Shown here piece by piece: positions 25,451 to 51,625 of a stretch of DNA of 64,000 nt. A program made the translations under genes and the position numbers. Each line of letters opens with the position of its first letter. Within the stretch, counting starts at the first letter, position 1. The notes under the pieces are model-generated. The model ran no database searches and was not told the origin of the DNA. It worked only from the letters and a program-made list of their open reading frames with translations. The DNA comes from a virus (taxonomy: Duplodnaviria > Caudoviricetes): IMG/VR virus record IMGVR_UViG_3300049574_000143, positions 4,358 to 68,357 of that record. The stretch is one strand, 5' to 3'.

Positions 25451-26446
25451 ATGCCGAGACGCTCACCTACCGTTGCCGACGTTGGCTGGGACTTCATGGA
25501 AGCCCTTCAGCGGGCCGGATCACCCCAGAACACGTACCGGGTCTACCGCTCCAACTGGTCATCCATGCTCGATGAGTTGGGCGGTAGGGCGATCACCAGC
25601 ATCACCCCGGCAGATCTGGGAAGGTACTGCGACGGAGGCGGATCCGAGGCGACCAGGAAGATGCGCCGACGGATCGCCAACCACGTCATGCGCCACGCCT
25701 ACCGACGGGGCGACGTGCGGTCTGTAGTACTCGTCCCTGAGCCCTCGTACAAACCGCGCACAAAGCAGAACGCGGAGTGGACTCGGTACAGCAGCGAGCA
25801 ACTCAGACGACTCATCCTATCGGCGCCCTGCCCGAGAAGTAGGGCCGCTATCGCTATCGGCGTTTACACGGCCATGCGGATAGAGGACATACGTCTCCTG
25901 CGAGCGCCTTCCCCTGACCTCGCGGATGGCTGGCTGGCAGCCTTTATCCACAAGACCAAAGTCTATGATTTCAAAGTGATTTCGGGGGGATTGGATGAGG
26001 AGATACGGCTTTATCTGTCGTGGCTCTACAGTCACGGTCCGACCAGGGCCGAGGACTATCTGATACCGGGTTATCCACCGTCCAACAGGGGTGATGGTTA
26101 CCTGGACGGTATCGATCTTAGCCGGCCCATCTCGAAGCACGCGCTGTATACGCGATATGCCGAAGCGAGGGACAGGGCCGAACTGCCGTACATGAAACAG
26201 GAGAAGTGGCACACCGTACGCCGCTCGTCGGCTCGACTGTTTTTCGAGTTGGCATCCGACCGGGGGTACGACATGGCACTCAGGATGACTCAGGCGTTCC
26301 TGAACCATAAATCTGTGCAGACGACCGAGCGGTACATAGGTATCGACTCAGCGTATGCGATGCGAGATGACTTCCTCCGTGAGCACGACTTGCTGGGTGC
26401 TCAGGGGGACGTTGTGACCCTACGGGGGCGGGAAGCGGGTCGATAG
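25451..26446 (+). CDS. int: Tyrosine recombinase/integrase (XerC/D-like architecture)
   Basis: YTAMR (Arg), HKTK, HTVRR (HxxR), LNHKSVQTTERY (His, Tyr); N-terminal SAM-like core-binding region. Confidence 0.9.
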   Translation: MPRRSPTVADVGWDFMEALQRAGSPQNTYRVYRSNWSSMLDELGGRAITSITPADLGRYCDGGGSEATRKMRRRIANHVMRHAYRRGDVRSVVLVPEPSYKPRTKQNAEWTRYSSEQLRRLILSAPCPRSRAAIAIGVYTAMRIEDIRLLRAPSPDLADGWLAAFIHKTKVYDFKVISGGLDEEIRLYLSWLYSHGPTRAEDYLIPGYPPSNRGDGYLDGIDLSRPISKHALYTRYAEARDRAELPYMKQEKWHTVRRSSARLFFELASDRGYDMALRMTQAFLNHKSVQTTERYIGIDSAYAMRDDFLREHDLLGAQGDVVTLRGREAGR

Positions 26447-27016: not shown

Positions 27017-27421
27017 ATGATGTCCCTCCCCGCAAACCAGTCCGGAGAAGGCCTGAGCCGCAGGCAACAGAAGGACTACTTCGCTGAGTGGCTGAGGCGC
27101 ACCATGGCCAACAGCGGCGTCTCCGGTGGAGAGGTAGCGCGAGCTCTGAACGTCAACGACTCGGCCGTCAGTCGGTGGCGGAGCGGTAAGGCGACACCTG
27201 GACTTGAATCAGTCCAGAGCCTTGCGGAATTCCTTAACGTCGACCCAATCCGCCTGGCGGTGACAGCGGGCCTGTTGAAGCCCGAAGTAGTAAAATCGGA
27301 GATGCTTCCACTTCCGCCCGACACGGCGCAACGACAATTCGTCCGAGAGCAAATCTCCAAGATCCCCGGACTTACGGATGAGGAGAAAGCCAGACTTCTG
27401 GAGGCCTACGACGATGAGTGA
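27017..27421 (+). CDS. XRE-family immunity repressor
   Basis: HTH VSGGEVARALNVNDSAVSRWRSGKATP; AGGAG RBS; adjacent to the recombinase. Confidence 0.85.
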   Translation: MMSLPANQSGEGLSRRQQKDYFAEWLRRTMANSGVSGGEVARALNVNDSAVSRWRSGKATPGLESVQSLAEFLNVDPIRLAVTAGLLKPEVVKSEMLPLPPDTAQRQFVREQISKIPGLTDEEKARLLEAYDDE

Positions 27422-28765: not shown

Positions 28766-28794
28766 TTGACACTTTTGCCGTCGGTTCCTAAACT
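28766..28794 (+). promoter_or_regulatory. Sigma70/HrdB-type promoter
   Basis: TTGACA, 17-bp spacer, TAAACT. Confidence 0.65.
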
Positions 28795-29029: not shown

Positions 29030-29067
29030 AAAAAATCGCCCCCCAAGGCCGAAGCCAAGGGGGGCGA
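29030..29067 (-). terminator. Late-operon terminator
   Basis: TCGCCCCCC..GGGGGGCGA stem followed by six T on the minus strand, downstream of the holin. Confidence 0.8.
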
Positions 29068-29113: not shown

Positions 29114-29290
29114 TCAGCCCTTGTTGGGCACGACGTACGTGACGCCCAGGGCGCCCAGTACGGCAAGGACGACGGTGACGACGTCACCGGTCGACAGGGA
29201 GCCGTCGGCGGTCGCCGTCAGGAGCGTGCCGGTGGCGGCAGCGGCTGCGGCGACGACGGCCTTGGCCATCGAGGAGAGCTTGACGAGCAT
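29114..29290 (-). CDS. Holin (58 aa, two TM)
   Basis: Manual translation MLVKLSSMAKAVVAAAAAATGTLLTATADGSLSTGDVVTVVLAVLGALGVTYVVPNKG; directly after the endolysin. Confidence 0.8.
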   Translation of the reverse strand: MLVKLSSMAKAVVAAAAAATGTLLTATADGSLSTGDVVTVVLAVLGALGVTYVVPNKG

Positions 29291-29309: not shown

Positions 29310-30080
29310 TTACCGCGGGACCTTGAGCTTGTCCCACGTGGTCTTGCCCGGCCACCCGTCGGCGTCCGAGCCACTGAAGCCGCACTTCCGCTGCCAGGCG
29401 GCGTACGACTCCCTGTCGACGTCGGTCCACTGGGGACCGGGGCCGACCTTGTACTTGCCGCACTTCTCGGCGACAAGCCGCTGTCCCATGTGCTCGATCA
29501 CGGGCGCGTTCGGCTTCCGCTGGAACCACGCGGTGCCGGGGAACGCCTGGAATGTGCCCTGGGACGTCTTGACGGGCGCAGAGCTGGGCGCCGGAGCACT
29601 GGTCGATGCCCCGGTGTACGCCGGCCGCCCGAAGCCGGCGATGTCGTGCACGTAGCGCACCTTGCGGGCGCAGACGTTGCCGATGTTGCCTTCGATGGTG
29701 TAGACGGTGGCGCCGTCGGTGCCGGTGACGACTCCGACGTGATCGATCGCGCCGATGGACGAGGAGCCGTCCCAGTCGAAGAAGACGACGTCGCCCCTAC
29801 GGATACCGCTGGCGACGACGCCGTTCGTCATCGCGTGCCACTCGCCGCGAGACTGGAAGGCCTGGGCGTGGGCGACGGTGTAGGCGTACTTCGCGTTGAA
29901 GCACACCGGACCCTGGACGCCGGCGTGGTACGCCCAGTAGGTGACGGCCTGGTCGCACCAGGGCTCACCGTTGAGGCCGTACCACTCGGTGATGTAGTTG
30001 ACGTTGTCGCCGTTGTGCTCACCGACACCGAGGGACTTCTCGGCCTGGGCGATGAACGCTTCGATCTGCGCGTTGCTCAC
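29310..30080 (-). CDS. Endolysin: CHAP domain plus C-terminal peptidoglycan-binding domain
   Basis: WCDQAV (Cys), GDVVFFDW, HVGVV (His), TIEGN; C-terminal WQRKCG..G..ADGWPGKTTW. Confidence 0.9.
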   Translation of the reverse strand: MSNAQIEAFIAQAEKSLGVGEHNGDNVNYITEWYGLNGEPWCDQAVTYWAYHAGVQGPVCFNAKYAYTVAHAQAFQSRGEWHAMTNGVVASGIRRGDVVFFDWDGSSSIGAIDHVGVVTGTDGATVYTIEGNIGNVCARKVRYVHDIAGFGRPAYTGASTSAPAPSSAPVKTSQGTFQAFPGTAWFQRKPNAPVIEHMGQRLVAEKCGKYKVGPGPQWTDVDRESYAAWQRKCGFSGSDADGWPGKTTWDKLKVPR

Positions 30081-30352
30081 GCCGACACCCCCTCGATGTG
30101 CGGGGCGTACACGCCCTTGACGGGCGCACCGAAGGCTTCGGTGAGCCTCTCTTCCTCGTCGGCCGCCGTGGGCGGCGTACGGGGCTCCCAGCCGGCCGGC
30201 GGGTTGAACTCCTGCTGGCCGGTATCGGGGTCCCTGACGCACTGCGTGCCCTTCGGGGGCATGTCGGACGGCGGCTCGACGGTCTCGGCGTCGTGCTCCC
30301 CGAACACCTTCTCGATGAGGCTCTCGCCCTCTTCCGCGTGCTTTCCGCTCAC
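30077..30352 (-). CDS. Small acidic hypothetical protein
   Basis: GAAGGGAAG RBS; coupled to both neighbours; LxExFG twice. Confidence 0.7.
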   Translation of the reverse strand: MSGKHAEEGESLIEKVFGEHDAETVEPPSDMPPKGTQCVRDPDTGQQEFNPPAGWEPRTPPTAADEEERLTEAFGAPVKGVYAPHIEGVSA

Positions 30353-30882
30353 GAGAGCTTCCCTTCGAACTCGGCGAGCGCCTTGGTGAGCGCCTCGCGC
30401 ACGGTCTGGCCGGCGTTGGTGAGCTGGTTCAGGGCGGCCTGGACCTGCCCGTGGCGGGACTCCAGGTCGTCGAGCGCCTTCTGCTTGTCGGCCAGTCCCT
30501 GCGTGCGTATCTGCTGCGCCTCCAGGACGGCCTGACCCTTGATGCCCTCGGCCTGTGTGGTGGCGTCGGCGACGATGCCGGCGGCCTGGCTCTTGGCGTC
30601 CGCGACGTGCTTGTCCGCGGTCTCCTGCGCCAGCGTGAGGATCTTCTCGGCGGAGCCGGCCGGTGAAGCGCTGGTGACGAGCGGGAGCTGCGTCGTGGGC
30701 GCCTCGGTCGGCCGGCTCTCCAGGATCCGGATACGGTCCTGGGCGGCGTTGTACTGCTGCTCCAGGACCGCGAGCTGGTCCGCCACCTGGTCCAGGAAGT
30801 CGTCGACCTCATCCTGGTCGTATCCCTCACGGAGCCTGGTGGTGGCGAACCGCTTCTTGTTGATGTCGGCGGGTGTCAACAT
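30349..30882 (-). CDS. divIVA: DivIVA/Wag31 family protein
   Basis: MLTPADINKKRFATTRLREGYDQDEVDDFLDQV is the actinobacterial DivIVA N-terminal signature; second coiled coil SAEKILTLAQETAD...A. Confidence 0.9.
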   Translation of the reverse strand: MLTPADINKKRFATTRLREGYDQDEVDDFLDQVADQLAVLEQQYNAAQDRIRILESRPTEAPTTQLPLVTSASPAGSAEKILTLAQETADKHVADAKSQAAGIVADATTQAEGIKGQAVLEAQQIRTQGLADKQKALDDLESRHGQVQAALNQLTNAGQTVREALTKALAEFEGKLS

Positions 30883-30892
30883 CGATTACTCC

Positions 30893-32248
30893 TTACTTCC
30901 AGTGGTGGTGGCCCCAGTGGTGGTGCCGGTGGTGGTGGTGCGCGACGGAACCCGTCGGCAGCCTCAGCACCTGGCCAGGGAAGATGAGGTCGGGGTTGTC
31001 ACCGACGACGTCCCTGTTTGCGGCGTAGAGGGCCGGCCACCCGCCGGGAACGTTGTGCTCCCTGGCGATCTTGTCGAGGTAGTCACCGACGACGACCGTG
31101 TAGGTACCGTCCGTGCTACTAACCGGGGGCGGAGTAGTAGTTCCATCGCCACCGCCGGTCGACGGGGGCGGCGTGGTGCTGCCACCGTCCGAGGGCGGGG
31201 GCGTGGTCGTTCCGCCATCCGACGGGGGCGGGTTGGTATCGCCGGTGTTACCACCAGTGGCGCTACCATCCGCGGGGACGAACGGCGCCGGCCGGACCAT
31301 GGCGGTACGGGCGGAGGGGCCGCGGCCGGAGCGCTCATCCATGAACGACCAGTTGACGTTCGGGCGCGCGGGGTGCCGGCTGTTCGTCTCGATCAGGTCT
31401 TCGCCGTTCGGCCCGATGGGTCCGACGTACAGCGCGACGTGACCTCCCTCGAACCCGTCGTAGGTGACGAGGTCACCCGGGAGCAGGTTGGCTGTCGAGG
31501 TGACCAGCGTGGCCTGGGGGCCGACGTTGGACGGGACCTCCTGGGAGTAGGAGTCACGGGCCGACTCGGTGAAGTCGACGCCGCCAGCCTTCCAGGCCTG
31601 CGAGGTGAGCCCCGAGCAGTCCCATCCGCCGTCCTGCGGGCCGTTGCCGCCGTAGACGTACGGAAGGTTGTAGCCGATCGCTGCGATGGCGTACTTGACC
31701 GCCAGGTCGGCCGGGGAGCCTTCCTTCGGCTTCGGCACGGTGGCGCCGGTGATCGGGTCGAGGGTTCCCGTGCTCGCCGGCGTGGTGGCCGGCGGAGTGG
31801 TAGTGGTCGTAGTTCCCGGGGCCGTACCTGGGTTGCCGGGGTTGGCATCCGCCTTGGTCAGGAGACCCTGGCAGGAGCCGTTCGAGAGGTCGCCGGTGTT
31901 GAACGTGATGGTCGACCAGGCATCCGGCCCCTGGTCTGCGAGCACCTTCTCGGCGATCGCTATCTGCTGAGCCTTCGTGGCCTGCTCCGCGCTGGGCGCG
32001 TAAGCAGTGCCTCCATATGCCGCCCACGTGGACGGGATGATCTGAAGCCCGCCGCCGCCAGGCGCATTCCAGTTTCCGGACGACTCACATGAAGCGAGCT
32101 GGTCCCACTGGGATTCGGTGGCGGCAGAAGCGGAACTGGCGAAGGTCGCGGGAACAGCGACAGCTCCAAGCCCAACGGTTGCACCGAGGGCTATCTTCTT
32201 CATCGTCGTCGTGTTGGTCGGCTGGCGGTGGCGTCCGTGCGTCACCAT
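30893..32248 (-). CDS. Secreted Rpf-like transglycosylase, NlpC/P60 peptidase and LysM protein
   Basis: GRHR plus signal peptide; [17 protein letters not shown]...TW..YGG...[14 protein letters not shown]; PYVYGG..DCSGL..GHVALY; [12 protein letters not shown]...[11 protein letters not shown]. Confidence 0.92.
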
Positions 32249-32249
32249 T

Positions 32250-32510
32250 TCACCTTCCTATCACACTGTAAATCGTCACTCCCGCGCTAACTAGCGCACC
32301 CAGAAAGCTGGTTGGGAGCATGTAGCGCCAACGCTCAAGAGAACGCAGTCGGTTCTCATGGTCTTCGCGCTGCTTTGCATCCGCTTCTCTGTCGTCGCGA
32401 ATGCCTTTGAGGGTGGTCTCGATACGCGCCAGCCTTTCGGCGACGAGAATCATCCAGCCCTCAGTACTAGGGACCGCCGGTATTCCCTGCGGTGGAGTCT
32501 CGTCACTCAT
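32250..32510 (-). CDS. Coiled-coil protein with C-terminal TM (holin-like or lysis accessory)
   Basis: [21 protein letters not shown] plus hydrophobic C-terminus; first gene of the lysis block. Confidence 0.7.
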
Positions 32511-32743: not shown

Positions 32744-33643
32744 CTACAGGTAGTAGCTAACCCCGTTCAGGGAAATCCAGGTTGGGTTGTTCACGTTGTG
32801 CTGGTGGGAGCCGCCGGAATTCGAAGTACCGGCCGCTTCGCCAGAACCAGAACCACCCACACCGACGCTGAAACCGTGGGTGTGATTGGTACCGGTACTT
32901 GCGCCGCCGGTGGTGCTCGAACCACTGGCGCTTACGCCGACGTCGACACCGATATCCACGAAGTGGGTGTGACTTCCAGCGGATGCCGGCGAGGTCAGGC
33001 CGCCGACCAGGGTCGCTTTACCGTCGGACGTGAAGTCGATCTGGGCGACGTTCGATCCACCCTGGACGTCACGGGCAACAAGCACTGAGCGTTTGGAGGT
33101 TGGGCGATAGTCGGGGTCCAGGGCGGCGATTATGTTCGTCCCGGATACGTTCCAGCCACCCCGCCATTCCATCTGCCAGGAACCGTGGTTGAGGATTCGC
33201 CGGTAGTAGATGTCGCCGTTGCCGTTACCGCCGTGGGAGCCGGCGGCGAGAGTCGCCCTCTTCCATCCGGTATCGACGGGGCCGACTTCCGTTCCACCGG
33301 AAGCTGCCACAGCGCCCAGGATGAGGATCTCCGACTTCTGCTTTGCCAGCAGAACCGTCTGACCCACAAGTGGCGTGTAGTTGTTCATCATCCGGACTTC
33401 GTCGACCGAAGTCTGAGTATCGCCCGAGATGTTGAGGCTCACCGTCGGTGGGACGGTGAGCGCGTTCACCTGGGTGATGGTCGCCTTGCGGATGGTGAAT
33501 CCGGCAGACACGGCCTTATCCACCATGTTGCCCATAGTGGTTGCCAGGTCGCGGAGTTGAATGTCGAGGGCGGTGCTAAGGGCGGCGCTCTCACTGCCGT
33601 CTACCGATCCGGTTGGAGTTGTGACAACTATGTCGTCGCTCAC
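32744..33643 (-). CDS. Minor tail / fibre protein
   Basis: Position after tail hub genes; Gly/Ser/Thr-rich with HTH.V repeats. Confidence 0.7.
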   Translation of the reverse strand: MSDDIVVTTPTGSVDGSESAALSTALDIQLRDLATTMGNMVDKAVSAGFTIRKATITQVNALTVPPTVSLNISGDTQTSVDEVRMMNNYTPLVGQTVLLAKQKSEILILGAVAASGGTEVGPVDTGWKRATLAAGSHGGNGNGDIYYRRILNHGSWQMEWRGGWNVSGTNIIAALDPDYRPTSKRSVLVARDVQGGSNVAQIDFTSDGKATLVGGLTSPASAGSHTHFVDIGVDVGVSASGSSTTGGASTGTNHTHGFSVGVGGSGSGEAAGTSNSGGSHQHNVNNPTWISLNGVSYYL

Positions 33644-34800
33644 GAGATAGCCAGCCTCTCGCGCATTGTCAGGGTCTGGGTATTCGTGCCGCTACCGGCG
33701 CCGCCCATAGCGCCCGTAGTGAGGGGCACGGTGAACGCGTCCATTACGTAAAGCCCCTGAACCCCGGATGCGATCCGCTGTACCGCCACCACATCGCCGC
33801 CCTCGTATGAGGGATTGACTACGGTGGTGAGCGTCAACTGCGAGGTGTAGCCCAGGAGTAGGGCCAGCTGGGACTGGGCGAGCGTCTGCGCATCCTCTAC
33901 GGTCTTGACGTTCTGGTCCTGGACGAAGGTGGGCACCTCGCCGTAAGGGCCGTAGCGGTATGTAGGGGAGGCGGGATTCTCATCCCACGCCTCACCGCGG
34001 ACCGGAGGCTCCTCGTCGCCGACGGATTCCCCTACGACGATCACGCCGTTGAATCCCGGATCGTCCGTGAATACCCGGGTCATGTCGAGCATCGAGCAGT
34101 TCTGACCCTCGACGTAGGAGAAGTCGGGAGCAGGAAGGGCGTGGATATCCGGGGGAGGGGAGATGGCGACGCGACCGAGGACGTCGAAATAGATCTCGCA
34201 GCCCATGGACTTCGCCAGGGCCGTCACGGCGTCCCAGGGGTCGTCCCCGGCGTCGAACAGCTGCGGCGCCGTGATGGTGAGATCGGTGTCGATGGCGTCG
34301 TACTCGGCGTCCGGGAAGGTCCGGACGATGATGTCCTTGATCGCTTGGAGGCAGTTGGTGCCGGCAGCGATGGTGTAGGGAACGGTGAACTTGTCCCTGG
34401 AGACCGTCCGGGAACGGTCGTAGCCCTCCAGCTGGATGTTCACCGTTCCCTGGATGCCGGCGGTGATGGTGCACATAGACAGCCGGAAGACGCCCAGGGG
34501 GGCGAGCTCCTCGGTGCCGGCCCGGGGGCCGGAGGTGTAGCGGACGCCGCGGTAGGCCCTGAGCTCCGAGCCGTACGGGGTGAGAACCTCTCCGGTCGCC
34601 CGGGGCGTCAGGGTGCCGCTGGAGTCGGTGGCGGAACAGGTGATGTGGCGCCGGTACTGGGCCGTTCGATCCACATCAACCGTTCCGTCAGTCGCTTCGA
34701 GCCGGATGATCTCCAGGTCGGGGGTGACCAGGTCGACATACGAGATAGCGGTATGGCTGATCGATATCTCGTTGTAGAAGTCGTCCGTCATTCCACCCAT
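33640..34800 (-). CDS. Minor tail (hub/Tal-like, DUF5047-like) protein
   Basis: P.G.ELRAYRG..Y...E.APLGVFR, DRSR.V, FNGVIV.GE; position after the large minor tail gene. Confidence 0.75.
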   Translation of the reverse strand: MGGMTDDFYNEISISHTAISYVDLVTPDLEIIRLEATDGTVDVDRTAQYRRHITCSATDSSGTLTPRATGEVLTPYGSELRAYRGVRYTSGPRAGTEELAPLGVFRLSMCTITAGIQGTVNIQLEGYDRSRTVSRDKFTVPYTIAAGTNCLQAIKDIIVRTFPDAEYDAIDTDLTITAPQLFDAGDDPWDAVTALAKSMGCEIYFDVLGRVAISPPPDIHALPAPDFSYVEGQNCSMLDMTRVFTDDPGFNGVIVVGESVGDEEPPVRGEAWDENPASPTYRYGPYGEVPTFVQDQNVKTVEDAQTLAQSQLALLLGYTSQLTLTTVVNPSYEGGDVVAVQRIASGVQGLYVMDAFTVPLTTGAMGGAGSGTNTQTLTMRERLAIS

Positions 34801-38810: not shown

Positions 38811-41800
38811 TTATGTAAGACGTGAACCAGTGCCCTTGCTGAGCATGATGCGCAGCTTCGGAATTACCTCGCTGTCGAGCTTCTCCACAGCGGCCTTATC
38901 GAGATTGCCCGCCACAGAGATGGGCATCGAGACATGGACGCCGCCACCGTGGCCGCCGCCACGAATAGCCTTGGAGAGTTCGTGATTGCTGTCGATTCCT
39001 TCGCCGCCCCGGAAATTGATCATTTCCGGACCCTGCTCGCCGACGAGCGCCCAGCCTGAGGTGGCGCCGGCGGTGCCGCTCGCGTAGGCAGCACCGGTCG
39101 GGACCCGGCCGCCGTAAACGGCTCGAATGTAGGCCGCGGCAGCAGCCATATTCGCAAGCGGGTCAAGGATGTTGTTGGAAGTTCCAGCAACGTGGTACTT
39201 CGAGAAGTTGGGCGGAATGATCTGCATCAGACCCTGGGACGGGATACCGTTCTTGGCGTTGATGTCCCAGGTGTTGATGGCGTTCGGATTACCACTCGAC
39301 TCGATCTGCATTCGCAGAAGGAATGCATCGATCTGCGACGGGTCGATACCACCCATCTTCATCGCCTGAATGGCCAGAGCGCGCCATGCCTGTACCGACT
39401 GGGCGCCGGCCACGGCGTGAGACTCGTAACTGGCCTTGGCCTCGGAGTCCTTTTTCGCGAACCAGTCGATCGCCGACTTGGCGACCTTCTTGGCTGCCGC
39501 GACAGGGATCTTGCCGACGTCGCCGCCCTGGTTGAAGGCGTTCAGCGGGCCGAGCAGGGCGTTGATCGCCGTCTCGAAGGCCGCCCGGCCGATGAAGCCG
39601 AGCACCGCGCCGCCCAGGTCGCCGACACCGGGGATACCGATGCCGGACAGGCCGGCCGAGCTGGAGGTGCCGGCGCCGCCGGGGTTCTTGCCCGGGGTCT
39701 GGCCCACCGTGCCCGACGTCTGGCCGGGGTGGCTCGGGTCGGGTGCCGGGATCTCGGACGGCAGGACGCCACCCGCGGCGAAGGACCAGCCCGGGTTGGG
39801 GCCGGACCGGTGCCAGGCCTCCACTCCGCCCAGGCCGGAGACGATGCCGCCGGCCGCGAAGCCGGGGAGCATGTCACTGAAGCCGGCCTTTCCGCCACGA
39901 CCGTTGGAGAAGTGGTAGTTGGCCGCGTGGACGAAGCCGGCGCCCAGACCGGCGACAGCCTCGGGAACGAGGATGCCTTCGCCGGGGGACAGTGCCGCGG
40001 TGACGGTGTCGTTACCGGGCGAGTAGCCGCCCAGGACGCCGCCGCCCTCGAACTGGTTGATCCCGCCGCCGACGATGCCGCCCTTGGCGAAGCCGCCGCC
40101 GGGCGTCGTGCCGCCGGGGGCGGTGCTACCGCCGCCGCCTCCGCCACCACCGCCGCCGCCTACGTGCGGCACCGGGTTCTTGCCCCAGAGGTGAAGACCG
40201 ACCTTTTCGGCGATCGACTCGATGCCGTTGGCGATTCCGTTGATGACGTCGATGACCGCGTTGACGGCATCGGTGACGATGCTCTTGATCTTGTCCCAGG
40301 CGCTGCTGGCGACCTTGCCGAGCCCGTCCCAGAAGTCGCTCCAGAGCTTCTTCACGGTCGAACTGAAGGTGTCCCAGATCGACTTGACGCCGTCCAGGAA
40401 TGTCTGCCAGAGCTTCTTGATCCCGTCCCAGACCGTCTGAGCGGCCGACTTGATGGCGTTCCAGAAGGTCTGCCAGGCTGACTTCAGTGCGTTCGAGACG
40501 GTGTTCCAGATCGTGCGGACGCCATTCAGGAAGGTCTGCCACGCCGTTTTCATGGCGTTCCAGACCGTCTGAGCGGCCGTCTTCAGAGCGTTCCAGAACG
40601 TCTGCCAAGCCGTCTTCAGCGCGTTCGAGACCGTTGTCCAGACGGTCTTCACCGCGTTGAGGAACGCGTCCCACGCCGTTTTCATGGCGTTCCAGACCGT
40701 CTGAGCGGCCGTCTTCAGCGCGTTCCAGAACGTCTGCCAGGCAGTCGTCAGTGCAGAACTGACGGTCTGCCAGACCTGCTGGAGCCCCTGGATGAATGTC
40801 TGCCAGGCGGTCTTCAGCGCGTTCCATACAGCCTCAGCCGCAGTCTTCAGCGCATTCCAGAAGGCGCTCCAGGCGGCAGTGAGGGCGCCGGAGACCGCCT
40901 GCCACGCCGTGGTGAAGGCGGTAGCTACCGCCTGCCACGCCGTCTTCAGCGCGTTCCAGACAGCCTCGGCAGCCGTCTTCAGTCCGTTCCAGGTGGCGTT
41001 CCAGGCGGTGGTGATCGCGCTGGCCGTCGCACTCCAGGCCGTAGCGAAGGCGCTGGCGACAGCGCCCCACGCGACCTTCAGCGCGTTCCAGACAGCCTCG
41101 CCGGCGGTCTTCAGTCCGTTCCAGGTGGCGTTCCAGGCGGTGACCATCGCGCTGGATACGGCCTGCCATGCTGTACTCAGGGCGGACACCGTGGCCTGCC
41201 AGGCAACCTGGAGGGCCTGCCAGACGGCCTCGGCGGCCGTCTTCATGGCGCCCCACACCGTGGACCAGTGCGTGACCAGCTCGTAGATGCCGATAGCGAC
41301 AGCGGCCAGGGCGAGGACGACGAGACCGATGGTGGCGATGAGCGGAAGCGCCGCGGCATCTACGCCGAGCAGCGAGGCCGCGAAGGCGGTCATGCCGCCG
41401 CCGCCAGTGAAGGCCGCCATGCCGGCGGCTTCGCACGCCGCCGAGAGGGCTGCGATGCCGCTGCTGATCGCCTGGACGATCATCATGCCCTGCATGGCGG
41501 ACTTCCAGAGCAGCCATGCGTCAGCGATCGCTTGAATGACCCCCGGAGGCATTGCCCCGATGATCTGGAGGAGGGCAGTCGACAGAAGGAGCGCCTGGGG
41601 CGCCATTCCGGAGAAGGCCGATCCCACGCTCTTCAGGGCGCCCCCGAGGGCGCTGAAGAAGTCCTTGATGGCAGGGCCGTTGTCGTGGACGTATTGCAGG
41701 AACTTCTGAAAACCCCCACCGTCGGCCCACGCCTTCAGGTTCGAGGAGCCCTCGGCAAGCACCTTGATGAGTTGCTGCCCGAGAGGCAGGAAGGCGCGGA

Positions 41801-42575
41801 AGCCGTCACCGAGAACGGTTGCAACGTTCTTGCCGATGGTTATGAATTCCTGAAGCGCCGGGACGCCGTTTGACTTCAGTAGATTGATCCAGCCATCGAG
41901 CTTTGTATCGACCCAATGCTGAAAAGCTGTGGCAAGACCGTTGGCGAGAGGGGTAACCGCAGAAACGAGGGGGGCCAGCTTACCCACACCCTCGGCCAGG
42001 GCGTTTATGAACCTGGCAGCGACACTAAGGGTTTGGCCCTGAGTTGCACCAATGAATTTGCCCCAGGCGGTAGTTAGATTCTGTGTCGCATCAAGGAAGG
42101 CCTTTTGAGCCGGAGTTGCATTGGCTACGACGTGGTTGTACTCGTCTTGCAGCTTGTTGACTTCCTTCAGCTGCTTGCCGTACTGGTCGGTTCCTGGCGT
42201 CATTTCAGCCAGGACCTTCTTCGCCTCGCCCAGCTGCTGAGAGAGGCCAACGAGTCCGGTGTTCGTGTTATCTATGGCCTGGACGGCACCCCTCAGGGCG
42301 ACACCCCACACGCCGGCCGCGCCTGCTGCTGCGGCGGATGAGGCCGCGAGGCCACCCGCAACGGCTACCAGCCCCGCGCCAAGGGGGACCAGAGCCGGGC
42401 CGAAGGAGGTGGCAGCCGCTACAGCCAGCTCGATGCGCCCGGACCAGGAGTTGAGGTTGTTGGTGCTCCTCTTGGTGCTGTTGTCGAAGTCGTCGATGTC
42501 GCGGCGAGCCCGGCGGAGGCCACCACCGTCATACCTGGAGAAGATCTGGAATGTCAGGCTGGTGATGGTGGCCAT
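38811..42575 (-). CDS. Tape measure protein with C-terminal SLT lytic transglycosylase
   Basis: 1254 aa, Ala-rich, Trp-periodic repeats; IESSGNPNA...GLMQ..DPLANMAAA..YI...YG. Confidence 0.95.
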   Translation of the reverse strand: MATITSLTFQIFSRYDGGGLRRARRDIDDFDNSTKRSTNNLNSWSGRIELAVAAATSFGPALVPLGAGLVAVAGGLAASSAAAAGAAGVWGVALRGAVQAIDNTNTGLVGLSQQLGEAKKVLAEMTPGTDQYGKQLKEVNKLQDEYNHVVANATPAQKAFLDATQNLTTAWGKFIGATQGQTLSVAARFINALAEGVGKLAPLVSAVTPLANGLATAFQHWVDTKLDGWINLLKSNGVPALQEFITIGKNVATVLGDGFRAFLPLGQQLIKVLAEGSSNLKAWADGGGFQKFLQYVHDNGPAIKDFFSALGGALKSVGSAFSGMAPQALLLSTALLQIIGAMPPGVIQAIADAWLLWKSAMQGMMIVQAISSGIAALSAACEAAGMAAFTGGGGMTAFAASLLGVDAAALPLIATIGLVVLALAAVAIGIYELVTHWSTVWGAMKTAAEAVWQALQVAWQATVSALSTAWQAVSSAMVTAWNATWNGLKTAGEAVWNALKVAWGAVASAFATAWSATASAITTAWNATWNGLKTAAEAVWNALKTAWQAVATAFTTAWQAVSGALTAAWSAFWNALKTAAEAVWNALKTAWQTFIQGLQQVWQTVSSALTTAWQTFWNALKTAAQTVWNAMKTAWDAFLNAVKTVWTTVSNALKTAWQTFWNALKTAAQTVWNAMKTAWQTFLNGVRTIWNTVSNALKSAWQTFWNAIKSAAQTVWDGIKKLWQTFLDGVKSIWDTFSSTVKKLWSDFWDGLGKVASSAWDKIKSIVTDAVNAVIDVINGIANGIESIAEKVGLHLWGKNPVPHVGGGGGGGGGGGSTAPGGTTPGGGFAKGGIVGGGINQFEGGGVLGGYSPGNDTVTAALSPGEGILVPEAVAGLGAGFVHAANYHFSNGRGGKAGFSDMLPGFAAGGIVSGLGGVEAWHRSGPNPGWSFAAGGVLPSEIPAPDPSHPGQTSGTVGQTPGKNPGGAGTSSSAGLSGIGIPGVGDLGGAVLGFIGRAAFETAINALLGPLNAFNQGGDVGKIPVAAAKKVAKSAIDWFAKKDSEAKASYESHAVAGAQSVQAWRALAIQAMKMGGIDPSQIDAFLLRMQIESSGNPNAINTWDINAKNGIPSQGLMQIIPPNFSKYHVAGTSNNILDPLANMAAAAAYIRAVYGGRVPTGAAYASGTAGATSGWALVGEQGPEMINFRGGEGIDSNHELSKAIRGGGHGGGVHVSMPISVAGNLDKAAVEKLDSEVIPKLRIMLSKGTGSRLT
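40430..41260 (-). repeat. 11/22-aa Trp-periodic repeats in the tape measure
   Basis: ALKTAWQTFWN / AAEAVWN / AAQTVWN units with near-identical DNA. Confidence 0.85.
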
Positions 42576-45918: not shown

Positions 45919-47421
45919 TCAGGCGGTGTTGTCGCCGACGATCAGGCGCCGGAAGGCGTTCGGGATGAGGATCTTCGAGTTGTTCATCCAGTACGTGTAG
46001 ACACCACGCTGACCGGTCGGGCGACCGGTGGTGGGGTCGAGCACGGTCGGGACCATCTCGACGGACATGCCGATGCGGTCGACGATGAGGAACTGCTTGA
46101 AGTCACCGAAGATCGCCAGACCCGCCGGCGCACCGAAGCCGTCGGAGTCCGCGGTGGCGGAAGCGACGGACGGCATCGCCGTGGAGCGGTAGGTCGGGTA
46201 GTCCAGCAGGCGGCGCGGGGTGGCGTTGGCCAGGTTCTCCGAGAACAGGTTGTTCATGGAGCCGCCGGTGCCGTCGGTGGCCAGCTGGCGCACCTTGTTG
46301 TAGAAGCTCTTGTGCGCGAGCCAGGAGGCGTTGCCTTCCCAGCGGGCGTCCAGGGCCTCTTCGAGGTTGTACAGGTCGAGGGCGGTGACGCCGGAGGCCG
46401 CGACCGCCAGCTCGACGTCGGAGGCGCCGGCCGCCGTGGTGCCGGGAAGGGAGCCGTTGACGCCGCCGGGGGCGGTGCCGGAGCCGTTGCCGGTGATGAA
46501 GGAGTTCTCCTCCTGGCCCTTGGCGTCGACCAGCATCCGGGTGATCTCCGAGCGGAGGGCGCTCCAGCTCAGGTCGATCTCGATCGAGAAGACCGTGTAA
46601 CCCTGGACCCGGTTGGTCCGCAGGGTCGGCTGGGCCAGCGTGAAGCTGGCGTCCGGGGCGACGTCGGTCTCAGCGCCACGGGACACCGAGGTACCCGAGG
46701 ACGTGACACCCTGCCACTCCTTGCCCACGATCGTCTCGACCCGGGCGAGCTCACGGATCGGGTTGACGACGCCGGCCGAGGTCAGCATGACCGTCGGGTC
46801 GAGCTGGAACGGCACCGCGTAGCCACCGCCGGTGTCGGAGCCGCCCACGCCCAGGTGCTGGGCGCGAAGCAGTGCCTGGCGCTCCTCCTGGGTGCACCAG
46901 GCGTCGGAGCCGTGGCGCAGCACCTTGGTGAAGGCGCGCTCGTAGTCGCTGCCGCCGGTGAGCAGCATGCGCTTGGCCAGCTCGCGACCGGAGTTGTCGA
47001 CGGTGAGCAGCAGCTCCTCCGCGCGCTCCTGGGCCGCCTCCTTGTCCTTCACGCCGAAGGAGGCACGCTCGATGGCGCGCTTGGCGTTCTCGGTGCAGCG
47101 CTCCAGGAAGTCGTCGCCGGAGTACGACATCTTGCGGATGTCGTCCAGGTCGAAGATCTCCTCGCCGCGGGAGGTGTGGACGGCGGGGGCGCCCTTGTCG
47201 GAGCCCTTCTCCTTGGTGCCGGCCTCGCCGAGGTCGCCGACCAGCTTCATGCGGGCTTCGGCGCGCTCGATGTCCTTGAGCAGGGTCGCGCGCTCTTCGG
47301 CCTTCGCGTCCCACTCGGCCTGACGCTCTTCGGAGAGCGCGGCGTCGCCGGCCTCGTCGTGCATCGCCCGGAGCTCCTGAATGAGCTCAGCCAGGCGGGC
47401 CTTCATCTCTTCGAGATTCAC
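45919..47421 (-). CDS. Major capsid protein, HK97 fold with N-terminal delta domain
   Basis: Coiled-coil N-terminus, GGYAVP, IFGDFKQFLIVDRIG, PNAFRRL. Confidence 0.95.
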   Translation of the reverse strand: MNLEEMKARLAELIQELRAMHDEAGDAALSEERQAEWDAKAEERATLLKDIERAEARMKLVGDLGEAGTKEKGSDKGAPAVHTSRGEEIFDLDDIRKMSYSGDDFLERCTENAKRAIERASFGVKDKEAAQERAEELLLTVDNSGRELAKRMLLTGGSDYERAFTKVLRHGSDAWCTQEERQALLRAQHLGVGGSDTGGGYAVPFQLDPTVMLTSAGVVNPIRELARVETIVGKEWQGVTSSGTSVSRGAETDVAPDASFTLAQPTLRTNRVQGYTVFSIEIDLSWSALRSEITRMLVDAKGQEENSFITGNGSGTAPGGVNGSLPGTTAAGASDVELAVAASGVTALDLYNLEEALDARWEGNASWLAHKSFYNKVRQLATDGTGGSMNNLFSENLANATPRRLLDYPTYRSTAMPSVASATADSDGFGAPAGLAIFGDFKQFLIVDRIGMSVEMVPTVLDPTTGRPTGQRGVYTYWMNNSKILIPNAFRRLIVGDNTA

Positions 47422-48358: not shown

Positions 48359-49894
48359 TTAAGTGGTCGGCTTCTTGGGGGCTGCGGCCTTCTTCGCGGC
48401 AGCGGCCTTCTGCTGGTTCTGGAGTGGGGTCGCCTTGGCGCCAGTGGTGCCGCCTACCGGCTTCTGGTTCTGGCCACCGGCCGGCCGACCCTTCGCGAGG
48501 TTGGGCGGGGTGTTCGGGTTCTGCTTGGCCGGCGTGCCTGCCGCGGTCGTCTTCGGCGCCCCGTAGTCGGGCTGATCCGGAAGTGGCGGCTGGAGCTGGA
48601 CGCTGAACAGGCCGGTGTGCTTGAGATCCGCCCAGTTGCGCGTCTTGAGGAAGGTGATGATCGATTCCGGCGTGTAGCCGTCCTGGATCAGCTTCGTCGC
48701 GATGGTGGCTTCCTCGGAGAGCACCTTCACGCGCGACGTCTCGTCGTCCTGGAGGAAGGCAACGTTCTTGTCGTCGTACCAAAGCCGCTTGCTGGCAGGG
48801 ACGTTGAGGAGTGATTCGTAGGCCGCGGCGACGGTGCGCCACATCGGCCGCATCCGGATGTCACCAAAGGCCTTGATCGCCGACTTGAAGTTGCCGGCGT
48901 TCAGGGAGGAGCCCTGCATACCTTCGGACAGGCCGACAACGACGGGGTGAATGCCGGCCGCGGCGGCGATACGGGTTTCGCCGGCGCCCTGCGTCTTCTT
49001 GAAGTCGAGCTGGGCGAAGTCGTGGCTGAGCGGGGTGACGTCCGCGCCACCGCCGAGGTACAGGGTCGAGTAGGCGTTGTCGACGCCGGCGTGACCCTCC
49101 TCCAGAGCGGAGACGAAGTCTTTGAACTGGTCGGCGGTGACGGTCTCCTTGAAGGAGACGGCCATGTTCGGGGTCGCGCCGTTCTCGAAGAACTTCAGCT
49201 TGTGAGTGGTGGCGGCACCGTCGGCCTGGATCTCGCGGAGTACCGGAGTTATCCAGCTCATGCCGCGGTACTGGGCCTCGGGGTCGGGGATCGGCGCCCA
49301 GTGCGCGATCTTCCCGTTCTCACCGGTGACCGGGTAGATGGCCCACTGCTTGCGGTCCTCGGTGTTGCCCGGCTTGTAGATGTAGCCGACGACGTCCGAC
49401 TGAACGGCCAGCGTGGGGTCGGCACTGAGGATGATGTCCACCCAGTCCGGGCGGAGCCGGCGCAGACGCTTACCCTCGCGGACGACGTAGTGATTGCCGG
49501 CCAGGTCGGCATCCTGGATCGCCCGGGACAGAAGGTCACCGGTCGTGCCGTTCGGCCAGGGGGTTTCGAGGATGGAGAGCTCGTCGGTCCAGTCGAGGTC
49601 TTCCTGCGGAGACCCCTTCGCCATGGTCTGCCACATGAAGCGGGCCTCGGTGAAGACCATCTGGCGGGCCACGCAGCAGGAGAAGACGACCGAGTTGGAT
49701 TTGAACGCCCCCTGGACATAGCCCATGAAGTCGTTCTCGATCCGCTCCATCCTCCCGCTGTTGCCGAAGCTGTTGATGCGGAACGGTACGAGCTGGTTGT
49801 CGAACTTGAAGTAGGACGCCCACTCATCCATGGAGAGGCGCTGTTCTTCGACTTCCTTCTTGCCGAAGATTGTCGACCAGAGGTTAGCCATCAT
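48359..49894 (-). CDS. Portal protein (HK97 family)
   Basis: NSVVFSC, GN.Y, LRPD.V, FFENGATP, RIAAAAGIHP. Confidence 0.93.
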   Translation of the reverse strand: MMANLWSTIFGKKEVEEQRLSMDEWASYFKFDNQLVPFRINSFGNSGRMERIENDFMGYVQGAFKSNSVVFSCCVARQMVFTEARFMWQTMAKGSPQEDLDWTDELSILETPWPNGTTGDLLSRAIQDADLAGNHYVVREGKRLRRLRPDWVDIILSADPTLAVQSDVVGYIYKPGNTEDRKQWAIYPVTGENGKIAHWAPIPDPEAQYRGMSWITPVLREIQADGAATTHKLKFFENGATPNMAVSFKETVTADQFKDFVSALEEGHAGVDNAYSTLYLGGGADVTPLSHDFAQLDFKKTQGAGETRIAAAAGIHPVVVGLSEGMQGSSLNAGNFKSAIKAFGDIRMRPMWRTVAAAYESLLNVPASKRLWYDDKNVAFLQDDETSRVKVLSEEATIATKLIQDGYTPESIITFLKTRNWADLKHTGLFSVQLQPPLPDQPDYGAPKTTAAGTPAKQNPNTPPNLAKGRPAGGQNQKPVGGTTGAKATPLQNQQKAAAAKKAAAPKKPTT

Positions 49895-50060
49895 CGCCTC
49901 CCTTCTCGATGTCTATGAAGCCGGCGAGCAGAATTCCGAGGCCGCCGCCGGTATAAAGCCCTATCGGACCGAATTGCCAGGTGACGCCCGTCATTGCGAG
50001 CAGATAGAAGAGGACTTGCAGGAGAAGAACCTGCGCCTTGCTCACTCTTACCTCCTGTAA
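49884..50060 (-). CDS. Small membrane protein between TerL and portal
   Basis: Hydrophobic LLLQVLFYLLAMTGV...GILLAGFI; GTG start near 50060 after GGAGG. Confidence 0.5.
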   Translation of the reverse strand, partial: LQEVRVSKAQVLLLQVLFYLLAMTGVTWQFGPIGLYTGGGLGILLAGFIDIEKGGDDG

Positions 50061-51625
50061 ACCCACGGGGCTGACGCAGGCTGCTCGTTGTTCAGCTTGC
50101 GATATCCCCATGCGGCGAGAGTGGCGCTCACGAGAGGGGAGATTTGAGATGTGGAGTTCTTCTTGTCCCACACCCATTTGCTGTCACCCAGGTCGCGCTT
50201 ATCCGCGCCGGAGACGGCAGTGGAAAGCGACTTCTGGCCGATGTGAACGATCTTCGGGACTTCCCCTTTTCGCGGCACCACGCCGACGTGGAATTCACCG
50301 CAGGAGACCGCGTACTCGTTCGCCTTTGGCGAGAGCACGGTGATGCCGAAGTTCTCCAGCTCCTCTATGAACGAAGAGGCCTGGTCGGTCTGGCTGATGA
50401 TGACCGCGCTCGGCTTGAGCGACGTCCAGAGCTGACGGATCCGGGAGGTCACCCAGTCGGTGCCCTGCCGGTAGTCCTCGGTCCAGACGCCGGCGCTATT
50501 CTCGCTGCCCGTCACCTCGACGTGGAGCATGCCCTCGTCGTTGATGCCGGCCGCGGTGATGCAGGACCACTTCCGGTCCTGGGAGACGTCCACAGCGAGC
50601 GTCCAGATGTTCTTCCGGCCGCCCATGAGGATCTGGCTCTCGGGCTGCTCCTGGCGCTGCCAGCTGGCCTCGTCGATGACGCTCCAGGCGTCACCCTCGA
50701 CCGGCCACCGGCCGACCGACAGGCGCTCGACCTTGAAGGCGTCCTCAGACATGGCCCGGCGCTCGTTGGCCACCGTGTCGTACGAGATGCGGATCCCGTA
50801 GCCGGGGTTGGCCTTGGCCCAGGTCTCCTCGTCGTCCAGGTCGTCGTGCTCTTCGCAGCCGGGGAGGCACATGTCGTCGCACGCGTCGGCCGACCATTCC
50901 GCGAAGAAGAGGAAGGGGTCGAGCTCGCCGCTGAGACCCTTCATGGCCCGGCTGCGTACGCGGCCGAACTCGAAGGCGTCCTCCAGGCCGGCGGAGCCGG
51001 TGTACCAGATCTGGGGGTTCGGCTGGGCGGACAGCGTCGGCCGCAGCGCCATCATCGACTCCTCGTCGAGGAACATCGCCTCGTCGAGGACGACCAGCTG
51101 CGGGCTGAAGCCACGTCCGAGCTTCTTGGTACGGGTCTTGAAGAGGAGGCGCGCACCGTTCTTGAGCTCGATGCGCTCCTTGCCGTTCGCCTCGTAGCAG
51201 CCCTTGAGCTCCTTGTTGAGGCTCGGCGTGTCCTGGATTAGCGAGGCGACGCGCCGGAAGTGCTCACCGGAGGTGGCGAAGTCCTGGGCGGAGTGAATGA
51301 TGGTCTTCTCGCCGAAAAGGAAAAGGCCCGCCAGTTGGCGAGCCTCCAGGATCGATCCCTTTCCGTTCTGTCTTGCTACCACCAGGCCCACATCCCTGGC
51401 GGCCCACATCCGTTCGTACTCCTTCGTGAACGGGTTGTGGTAGGTCTCGCTCCGCTGCGAGCAAGCCTGCTCCAGTACCCACTGCTGCCAGGGGTCCAGA
51501 TTCAGACCGGCCATTGCGGCGAGGTCTATCGCCTCACGACCCAGAGTTGAAATTCCCATAGCCGGGGGGTGATTGATCCGGGGCCGCTGGTGCCCGAGAC
51601 GCCTTCCGTTGCCGTATGCGCTCAA
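50048..51625 (-). CDS. terL: Terminase large subunit
   Basis: VARQNGKG Walker A, LVVLDEA Walker B, YTGSAG, ANPG, LAVDVS, ISPLVSATLA. Confidence 0.95.
   Translation of the reverse strand: MSAYGNGRRLGHQRPRINHPPAMGISTLGREAIDLAAMAGLNLDPWQQWVLEQACSQRSETYHNPFTKEYERMWAARDVGLVVARQNGKGSILEARQLAGLFLFGEKTIIHSAQDFATSGEHFRRVASLIQDTPSLNKELKGCYEANGKERIELKNGARLLFKTRTKKLGRGFSPQLVVLDEAMFLDEESMMALRPTLSAQPNPQIWYTGSAGLEDAFEFGRVRSRAMKGLSGELDPFLFFAEWSADACDDMCLPGCEEHDDLDDEETWAKANPGYGIRISYDTVANERRAMSEDAFKVERLSVGRWPVEGDAWSVIDEASWQRQEQPESQILMGGRKNIWTLAVDVSQDRKWSCITAAGINDEGMLHVEVTGSENSAGVWTEDYRQGTDWVTSRIRQLWTSLKPSAVIISQTDQASSFIEELENFGITVLSPKANEYAVSCGEFHVGVVPRKGEVPKIVHIGQKSLSTAVSGADKRDLGDSKWVWDKKNSTSQISPLVSATLAAWGYRKLNNEQPASAPWVYRR

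Follow-up and report, generated by a model that had tools for sequence, protein, structure and literature searches.

The 64,000-nucleotide stretch of DNA analyzed here (the window) is a portion of a 68-kb virus record of IMG/VR (IMGVR_UViG_3300049574_000143, positions 4,358 to 68,357), and carries on its minus strand, at 30893..32248, a gene for a putative cell-wall hydrolase that unites an export leader, an Rpf domain, an NlpC/P60 endopeptidase domain and a LysM domain in a single polypeptide. We give slightly better than an even chance to the reading that this protein is an exported accessory lysin, which would assist a separate cytoplasmic endolysin encoded in the same operon. The domains themselves, exported phage lysins, Rpf motifs in phages, and the synergy between RipA and RpfB are already known. 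New are an architecture that fuses leader, Rpf, NlpC/P60 and LysM in an essentially phage-specific family, the presence of this protein beside a canonical endolysin, the constant pairing with a DivIVA-like gene within one clade, and a cassette-like exchange of the Rpf module.

The open reading frame (ORF) encodes 451 amino acids (aa), arranged as leader, Rpf, linker, NlpC/P60, linker, LysM and His-rich tail, and its extent is supported by the ORF list, by the three Pfam domains, and by a GGAAGG ribosome-binding site just before the ATG at 32248, one base away from the stop codon of the upstream gene. Behind a Sec-type signal peptide (aa 1-42, 32123..32248), recognized from sequence reading and from its conservation in relatives, lies the Rpf, or transglycosylase-like, domain (aa 42-113, 31910..32125), which matches PF06737 (Transglycosylas) with an E-value of 7.6e-24 and 84.6 bits versus a cut-off of 27. 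The NlpC/P60 endopeptidase domain occupies aa 177-330 (31259..31720), with the match to NLPC_P60 (PF00877) at aa 196-276 (E-value 5e-10, 39.7 bits versus 23), and the peptidoglycan-binding LysM domain (PF01476) covers aa 383-431 (30956..31102; E-value 3e-6, 27.6 bits versus 20.9). Each call exceeds the curated cut-off of its family, and the three-domain composition that an earlier note on this DNA had proposed is thus borne out. The first linker (aa 116-176, 31721..31903) is rich in Pro, Thr and Gly, is closed by a conserved GTLDPITGA segment, and is delimited by a predicted local distance difference test (pLDDT) score below 50 over aa 111-156 and by a step in DNA identity described below; the second (aa 331-380, 31109..31258) consists of repeated GG(S/T)TTPPPS units, again with pLDDT <50. 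The C-terminal tail (aa 433-451, 30896..30952) spans 19 aa, of which 11 are His, Trp and Arg being present as well. It is common only to the closest relatives (P0002-P0004), related His/Trp-rich stretches being found inside linker 2 of P0006-P0008, and from its composition it could be a metal binder or a pH-dependent wall binder. Base composition was uninformative as to a recent capture of the gene (GC content 0.68 versus 0.64 for the window); GC at third codon positions (GC3) is 0.77 in the Rpf part versus 0.90 in the NlpC/P60 part.

The Rpf part aligns with the domains of M. tuberculosis RpfC, RpfB and RpfE in the PDB (E-values from 1e-14 to 5e-10), and its catalytic Glu55, within the motif CES, is invariant across 30 aligned relatives. 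In the NlpC/P60 domain, Cys211 (DCSGL) and His270 (GHV) are likewise invariant in the alignment, and Glu287 aligns with E or D in all relatives; it lies 17 residues past His270, a distance that exceeds the canonical 12 by an insertion of 5 residues. The catalytic Glu and the intact Cys and His of the earlier note are hereby confirmed, and its description of the domains and the leader also holds, two features having gone unmentioned: the His-rich tail and a deletion in the Rpf domain. The GNGxY(GG) loop of the substrate groove is not intact, since 4 residues are deleted relative to the Rpf structures in the PDB, and the canonical position of the second Cys reads WSTI, the next Cys following ~12 residues later. 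An AlphaFold2 model of the hydrolase is confident for NlpC/P60 and LysM (pLDDT 80-95) and moderate for Rpf, with the leader and both linkers disordered. The best Foldseek matches of the NlpC/P60 part are NlpC/P60 endopeptidases, including RipA and RipB (probability 1.00, TM-score by target 0.7-0.8), and the LysM domain is modeled as beta-alpha-alpha-beta (strand 381-384, helices 391-397 and 403-410, strand 427-430) with a pLDDT of ~90. We infer the muralytic activity of the protein and its bond specificities from these features.

The leader combines a basic n-region, in which the motif GRHRQP stands, with a hydrophobic core of ~19 residues and with the sequence ASA, after which comes another A. 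We assessed it by rule (charge, hydrophobic core, A-x-A) and surveyed 39 distinct N-termini of phage-borne relatives with 33-100% identity. In 38 of the 39, an A-x-A is preserved no more than 12 residues from the first tryptophan of the Rpf domain, and export therefore looks to be under selection in the phage lineage; a His-Arg/Lys motif (H-[RK]) is found in 33. Among distinct cellular Rpf leaders from reference actinomycete genomes (L095-L172), the n-region motif G-[RK]-H-R-[RK] occurs in 93 of 98 (e.g., RGRHRRYQPNR, GKGKHRRPSK), and because of this shared motif the leader is assigned to the host Rpf type. In the cellular proteins the conservation of this motif goes far beyond what the n-region of a signal peptide requires; it is absent from the Rpf-LysM-NlpC/P60 proteins of Kitasatospora. 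A Tat signal was ruled out, as the n-region reads R-H-R, without the twin arginine and the Tat consensus, and the same motif is usual in cellular Rpf leaders. The GRHR stretch pointed out in the earlier note is thus better described as a hallmark of cellular Rpf leaders, not of Tat export. A lipoprotein was ruled out too, since the cleavage site and its vicinity lack a Cys, and an uncleaved anchor of the signal-arrest-release type (core rich in Gly, Ala, Thr) is less likely given the conservation of the A-x-A. The Sec signal proposed earlier passes this rule-based check in its n-region, core, A-x-A and conservation. As to holin-independent export next to a CHAP endolysin, which had also been proposed, the conserved leader and the presence of a separate leaderless endolysin and of a holin agree with it, while secretion and cleavage of the leader are predictions made from the sequence.

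A search of ~5.8 billion proteins returned 601 matches, and domains were scanned in the best 120 of these. All but one carry both Rpf and NlpC/P60, most also LysM, and many M23 in addition; the sole exception, an NlpC/P60-LysM entry, is a shortened annotation of a full-length gene. A few of the best 120 add PG_binding_1, CAP or DPBB, and because relatives add these modules or M23, the hydrolase resembles modular multi-catalytic endolysins, such as the LysA proteins of mycobacteriophages with their RpfA-like and RipA-like modules (PMC3314691). Two metagenomic versions, P0050 and P0058, have five to six domains over 750-774 aa, with PG_binding_1, a DPBB-like or CAP domain, and M23 past LysM. The order Rpf-NlpC/P60-LysM lies in phage or prophage DNA for every member whose surroundings were examined. 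In reference genomes (one genome each from 185,579 species), the best 80 loci hold 80 ORFs with Rpf-LysM and 14 with Rpf alone, both of cellular type, as well as four with Rpf-LysM-NlpC/P60, which belong to Kitasatospora, lack the GRHR motif and lie in a non-phage context where examined (L004). Just two ORFs in these loci are of the Rpf-NlpC/P60-LysM type, both syntenic with viral contigs, and on these grounds a cellular origin of the fused architecture was rejected. A tblastn search of a collection of 50,697 records, which may lack the window's own genome, with the window protein and a distant relative as queries, found the three domains in one gene in no isolated phage, the matches being single-domain or two-gene only, and gp63 of Rhodococcus phage REQ1 (Rpf-M23-LysM) comes nearest; Rpf-bearing genes recur in phages of Rhodococcus, Mycobacterium and Streptomyces. 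Taken together, Rpf-NlpC/P60-LysM hydrolases appear to form a widespread, essentially phage-specific family.

Several members of this family stand in surroundings worth recording. The homologue in a prophage of Streptomyces sp. NPDC002754 (L090:9506-10894) is annotated by NCBI as a 297-aa 'NlpC/P60 family protein', started internally; its open frame runs to 462 aa and comprises the leader as well as Rpf, NlpC/P60, LysM and PG_binding_1 domains. In a prophage region of Streptomyces sp. NPDC059009, a gene of the SsgA family (L008:2116-2526), a family of sporulation and cell-division regulators, lies ~8 kb upstream of the Rpf-NlpC/P60-LysM gene. On a 77-kb Joint Genome Institute (JGI) contig with the relative P0062, a portal gene is followed by one for a 641-aa protein that has a domain of the ADP-ribosyltransferase exotoxin type, and Tet/JBP and other DNA-modification genes are also present.

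Within the hydrolase, the Rpf glycan-cutting module appears to be exchanged as a cassette by recombination, because identity drops in a step at the DNA level and the proteins are mosaic from domain to domain. P0002 is 99-100% identical to the window protein in NlpC/P60, linker 2, LysM and tail, versus 44% in Rpf, and the per-domain identities of P0003 and P0004 follow the same mosaic pattern. From ~aa 155 to the gene end and on into the DivIVA-like gene, the DNA of locus L091 matches the window at 96-100% identity, but over aa 40-155 at only 10-62%, with a recombination breakpoint near aa 150-155 (~31785-31800), in linker 1. At least four Rpf subtypes exist among the close relatives, all of which keep the catalytic Glu. 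In distant relatives, the Rpf domain shows ~60-68% identity versus ~25-35% for NlpC/P60. This swapping suggests that variable host walls or host countermeasures may be driving the exchange.

The close relatives, which share 42-85% identity, are those of the window, L003, L005, L006, L007, L090, L091 and L092; for a few lower-GC loci such as L006, the gene calls are those supplied with the locus. A DivIVA-domain gene lies directly past the hydrolase gene in all eight contigs, although L091 and L092 hold its start only (72 and 26 codons, respectively), because the contig ends there. Elsewhere the gene encodes 177-204 aa (window 30349-30882 on the minus strand; L003:11354-11887; L005:11125-11664; L006:11331-11876; L007:11920-12471; L090:10922-11536), and the N-terminal segment, of a membrane-binding type, is well conserved in the DivIVA-like proteins of the close relatives. 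In the window, L003, L005, L007 and the prophage L090, the hydrolase gene follows that of the small membrane protein and precedes those of the DivIVA-like protein, endolysin and holin, in this order. The distant IMG/VR relatives (33-38% identity) have no DivIVA neighbor. The terminase genes found beside distant relatives encode 680-815 aa (L013:4088-6292, L050:9230-11599, L028:9168-11201, L021:9066-11513, L039:9660-11921), and Hint domain matches in five large terminases in this position suggest the presence of inteins.

The window virus is a temperate siphophage, as can be seen from its genes for a large terminase (50048-51625), a portal (48359-49894), a major capsid protein (45919-47421), a tape measure protein (38811-42575) and a DUF5047 tail protein (33640-34800), all on the minus strand, and for a tyrosine integrase (25451-26446) and a helix-turn-helix (HTH) repressor (27017-27421) on the plus strand. 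An SLT lytic transglycosylase domain at aa 1068-1167 of the tape measure protein would give the virion a wall-opening activity of its own. The host is most likely a Streptomyces, because a syntenic prophage with the same cassette resides in Streptomyces sp. NPDC002754 and because the DNA of the endolysin gene resembles that of Streptomyces phages. Past the tail genes, the minus strand encodes in succession an 86-aa membrane protein, the hydrolase, the DivIVA-domain protein, a 91-aa acidic protein, the endolysin and the holin, followed by a hairpin. The 86-aa coiled-coil protein (32250..32510), with a C-terminal membrane helix, matches phrog_5225 at 1.8e-11 and, weakly, DUF2951, and its gene is translationally coupled to that of the hydrolase across a 1-base gap. 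Relatives of it stand upstream of the hydrolase in L003, L007 and L090 (51-80% identity) and a weak one in L005 (28%), and the gene in L006 is not recognizably related; it could act as a second holin-like or an anchoring component. The DivIVA-domain protein (30349..30882) has 177 aa and matches the Pfam family DivIVA with an E-value of 9.4e-16. The 91-aa acidic protein (30077..30352) is supported by its ORF, with a GC3 of 0.91; family searches gave no match for it, and a 92-aa gene takes its position in L003. The leaderless endolysin (29310..30080) comprises 256 aa from the GTG at 30080, has a CHAP/NlpC-like N-terminal domain, and matches PHROG endolysin families with an E-value of 5e-27, besides weak matches to Amidase_6 and NLPC_P60. 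The translation of 29114..29290 gives a 58-aa holin-like protein with two hydrophobic segments, 82% identical to that of a 57-aa gene past the CHAP endolysin in the prophage L090; in L005 and L007, this place is taken by r1t-type holins.

The late operon would end at a terminator-like hairpin with a T-run (29039..29062, minus strand). A consensus scan of the minus strand from 35000 to this hairpin, covering sigma-70-type promoters only, found no further promoter-like or terminator-like sites, and hence neither an own promoter nor flanking terminators of the kind expected of a moron. On the best reading of this arrangement, the hydrolase gene shares its transcript with the late genes for tail and lysis. 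In Streptomyces, rpfA is under riboswitch control. Control of this kind was ruled out for the phage gene, because no Rfam element, including the ydaO-type riboswitch, matched anywhere in the window. No tRNA genes were found near the lysis cassette. A near-consensus sigma-70-type promoter on the plus strand (28766-28794; TTGACA, 17-nucleotide spacer, TAAACT) is directed from the lysogeny side to the end of the late operon, and no convincing ORF lies downstream of it.

On the whole, the data on the hydrolase point more to accessory lysis or wall attack, because of its multi-catalytic design, its placement in the late operon, the adjoining holin and endolysin, and its DivIVA-like partner. As an exported accessory lysin, the precursor would enter the host Sec system by its host-Rpf-type leader and be cut after ASA, and the mature enzyme would be anchored on peptidoglycan via LysM, and perhaps also via the His-rich tail. 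The Rpf domain would then cut the glycan strand, and the NlpC/P60 domain the stem peptide at gamma-D-Glu-diaminopimelate, with both acting on neighboring bonds. In mycobacteria, RipA and RpfB hydrolyze peptidoglycan synergistically, that of Streptomyces included (PMC2262848). The hydrolase would in this manner load the wall from outside ahead of holin firing. Exported endolysins with a signal peptide are known to wait in the wall until the holin depolarizes the membrane (PMC6116005), and by analogy with one of them, Lys44 of phage fOg44, the window enzyme would probably be restrained until that moment. It might then aid the cytoplasmic CHAP-like endolysin in breaking the thick hyphal wall, while the neighboring DivIVA-like protein may direct it to growth zones or sensitize these. 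Its timing and its contribution to lysis are predictions.

Several points weigh against such a role. Unless held in check, an exported hydrolase with two activities could lyse the cell too early, and the sequence shows no evident means of restraint. The Rpf activity could be reduced, because the loop has lost 4 residues and the canonical disulfide partner is gone, the second Cys being displaced. The leader, moreover, is called from rules on charge, core and cleavage motif. The gene is also found elsewhere: in L006, the hydrolase-DivIVA pair adjoins PrimPol and WhiB genes and not lysis genes; 21 distant IMG/VR loci have a large terminase gene no more than three genes downstream, and 13 have a GerE-type HTH gene upstream; and the analogous gene of Rhodococcus phage REQ1 is far from the endolysin gene. 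Because of these placements, the link to lysis genes, which is strong in the clade of the window phage, is not family-wide. Finally, we found in the literature no functional study of the Rpf-NlpC/P60-LysM family and no direct report on a phage Rpf fusion or a phage resuscitation factor.

Other roles have to be weighed against the accessory lysin. The enzyme, secreted or released by lysis, might diffuse to dormant spores or resting hyphae, where the Rpf domain would trigger germination or regrowth and so make infectable hosts of non-permissive cells. The catalytic Glu of the Rpf domain, the leader of the cellular Rpf type and the conserved export signal would suit such a role. Furthermore, cellular Rpf proteins of Streptomyces and relatives promote germination and resuscitation, according to two reports (PMC9966590, PMC12011840), Rpf genes recur in phages of dormancy-capable actinobacteria (Rhodococcus, Mycobacterium and Streptomyces), and several lineages have the hydrolase gene unlinked to lysis genes. 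Yet the endopeptidase, accompanied in relatives by M23, looks made for destruction and not for a mild signal, LysM and the other binding modules would hold the enzyme on the wall of its producer, and the Rpf module is the least conserved and most freely exchanged part. Both the Rpf domain and export would fit an awakening of spores, but no result ranks it above the other readings, and we give it a low probability. It is distinctly unlikely, in our estimate, that a phage-made resuscitation factor freed around the lysing hypha enlarges the pool of hosts, with the swapping of Rpf modules tracking differences between spore walls. The DivIVA-like neighbor raises the further possibility, which we also hold to be improbable, that the hydrolase from the wall side and the DivIVA-like protein from the cytoplasmic side reprogram or destabilize the polar growth zones (tips, branch sites and cross-walls) during host takeover, independently of the final lysis. 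The two genes are adjacent in all eight close-relative contigs (two of them with the gene start only), even in L006 beside PrimPol and WhiB, and in a report on Kitasatospora, a minimized DivIVA leads to thicker walls and frequent bursting of tips (PMC12585849). This speaks for a joint action on growth zones as plausible in the clade of the window phage, but ~21 more distant relatives have no DivIVA neighbor, the two proteins would be on opposite sides of the membrane, and in most close relatives the pair directly precedes endolysin and holin. Weakening of cross-walls for spread along hyphae is favored by no data here.

A place in the virion, where the protein would open the wall locally at the tail tip for DNA injection, is suggested by the position of the gene directly past the tail genes and by domain-level matches to PHROG families, among them those of minor tail, virion structural and tape measure proteins. 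Rpf motifs are also found in tape measure proteins of mycobacteriophages, where the infection of cells in stationary phase is helped by a related hydrolase motif (PMC1796659). A cleavable leader in nearly all relatives is, however, hard to square with the cytoplasmic assembly of virions, the tape measure protein of the window phage already has its SLT domain, and other lineages place the gene beside terminase or replication genes, away from tail genes; a tail-associated lysin is hence unlikely, and we see only a very slight chance for it. A slight chance is left to lysogenic conversion, by which the prophage would express an additional Rpf-type growth or germination factor for the benefit of the lysogen. 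The phage is temperate, having both integrase and repressor, relatives are integrated in Streptomyces genomes, and the leader is host-like. Against this stands the embedding of the gene in the late operon, with its 1-base gap and with no promoter-like site or flanking terminators of its own in the sigma-70-type scan, as well as the lack of any ydaO-type riboswitch or other Rfam element in the window. An independently expressed conversion gene is not favored, because the gene is so tightly embedded in the late operon.

To our knowledge, the lysis by phages of filamentous, tip-growing and spore-forming actinomycetes is poorly understood. The hydrolase is a natural covalent fusion of two enzyme types that are synergistic in mycobacteria. 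If it does aid lysis as an accessory lysin, it would provide a model of two-lysin systems for Gram-positive hosts that grow as hyphae, and also supply enzymes that attack Streptomyces walls; should it wake spores instead, it would represent a new viral way of manipulating host dormancy.

Among known systems, gp63 of Rhodococcus phage REQ1 (annotated as lysin or transglycosylase) has a similar build, in which a leader of the GKHRK type is joined to Rpf at the N-terminus, a peptidase in the center and LysM at the C-terminus, and likewise exists beside a separate endolysin, gp83. The two phages also share a tail layout of tape measure protein, ~1330-aa protein and DUF5047 tail protein. However, the central peptidase of gp63 is an M23 metallopeptidase and not NlpC/P60, and its gene lies between primase/polymerase and terminase genes, without a DivIVA-like neighbor; we found no functional study of gp63 in the literature. 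Lys44 of Oenococcus phage fOg44 resembles the window protein, by the rule-based assessment of the latter's leader, in being a muralytic phage enzyme that bears a cleavable signal peptide; Lys44 is exported independently of the holin, builds up in the wall and becomes active once the membrane potential has been collapsed by the holin (PMC6116005). In contrast to the window phage, where the hydrolase is an extra enzyme next to a leaderless endolysin (29310-30080) that adjoins the holin, Lys44 is the only endolysin of its phage. The window hydrolase, moreover, has two catalytic domains of actinobacterial type, and its control by the membrane potential is assumed by analogy with Lys44.

The same two catalytic families meet in RpfB or RpfE and RipA of M. 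tuberculosis, and the Cys-His-Glu spacing of the window protein matches that of RipA if the 5-residue insertion is allowed for. These are separate host proteins that come together at septa, whereas the phage has one polypeptide with LysM, without the accessory domains of RpfB (DUF348, G5) and without the coiled-coil pro-region of RipA. With the cellular Rpf-LysM proteins of Streptomyces (RpfA-like), the hydrolase shares the GRHR-type leader, the Rpf domain and the LysM domain; another cellular architecture, that of RpfD, is Rpf-LysM-LytM. Cellular Rpf proteins differ in that they are Rpf-LysM or Rpf alone in the best 80 reference-genome loci, NlpC/P60 occurring only in Kitasatospora and there last in order, and in that the housekeeping rpf genes have a chromosomal context, unlike the window gene, which lies in a phage and without an Rfam match. 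Mycobacteriophages have borrowed the same host-type Rpf and RipA-like domains for their tape measure and LysA proteins (PMC1796659; PMC3314691), but there the modules form part of LysA or of tail proteins assembled in the cytoplasm, while the window hydrolase is free-standing and has an export leader. In Streptomyces phages pSt2308 and BRock, NlpC/P60 and Rpf-LysM genes lie adjacent to each other and close to the endolysin, as two small genes, each on its own (in pSt2308 with 150 and 189 aa), and not as the one fusion seen in the window. The LysA endolysins of mycobacteriophages are, as far as we know, without a leader.

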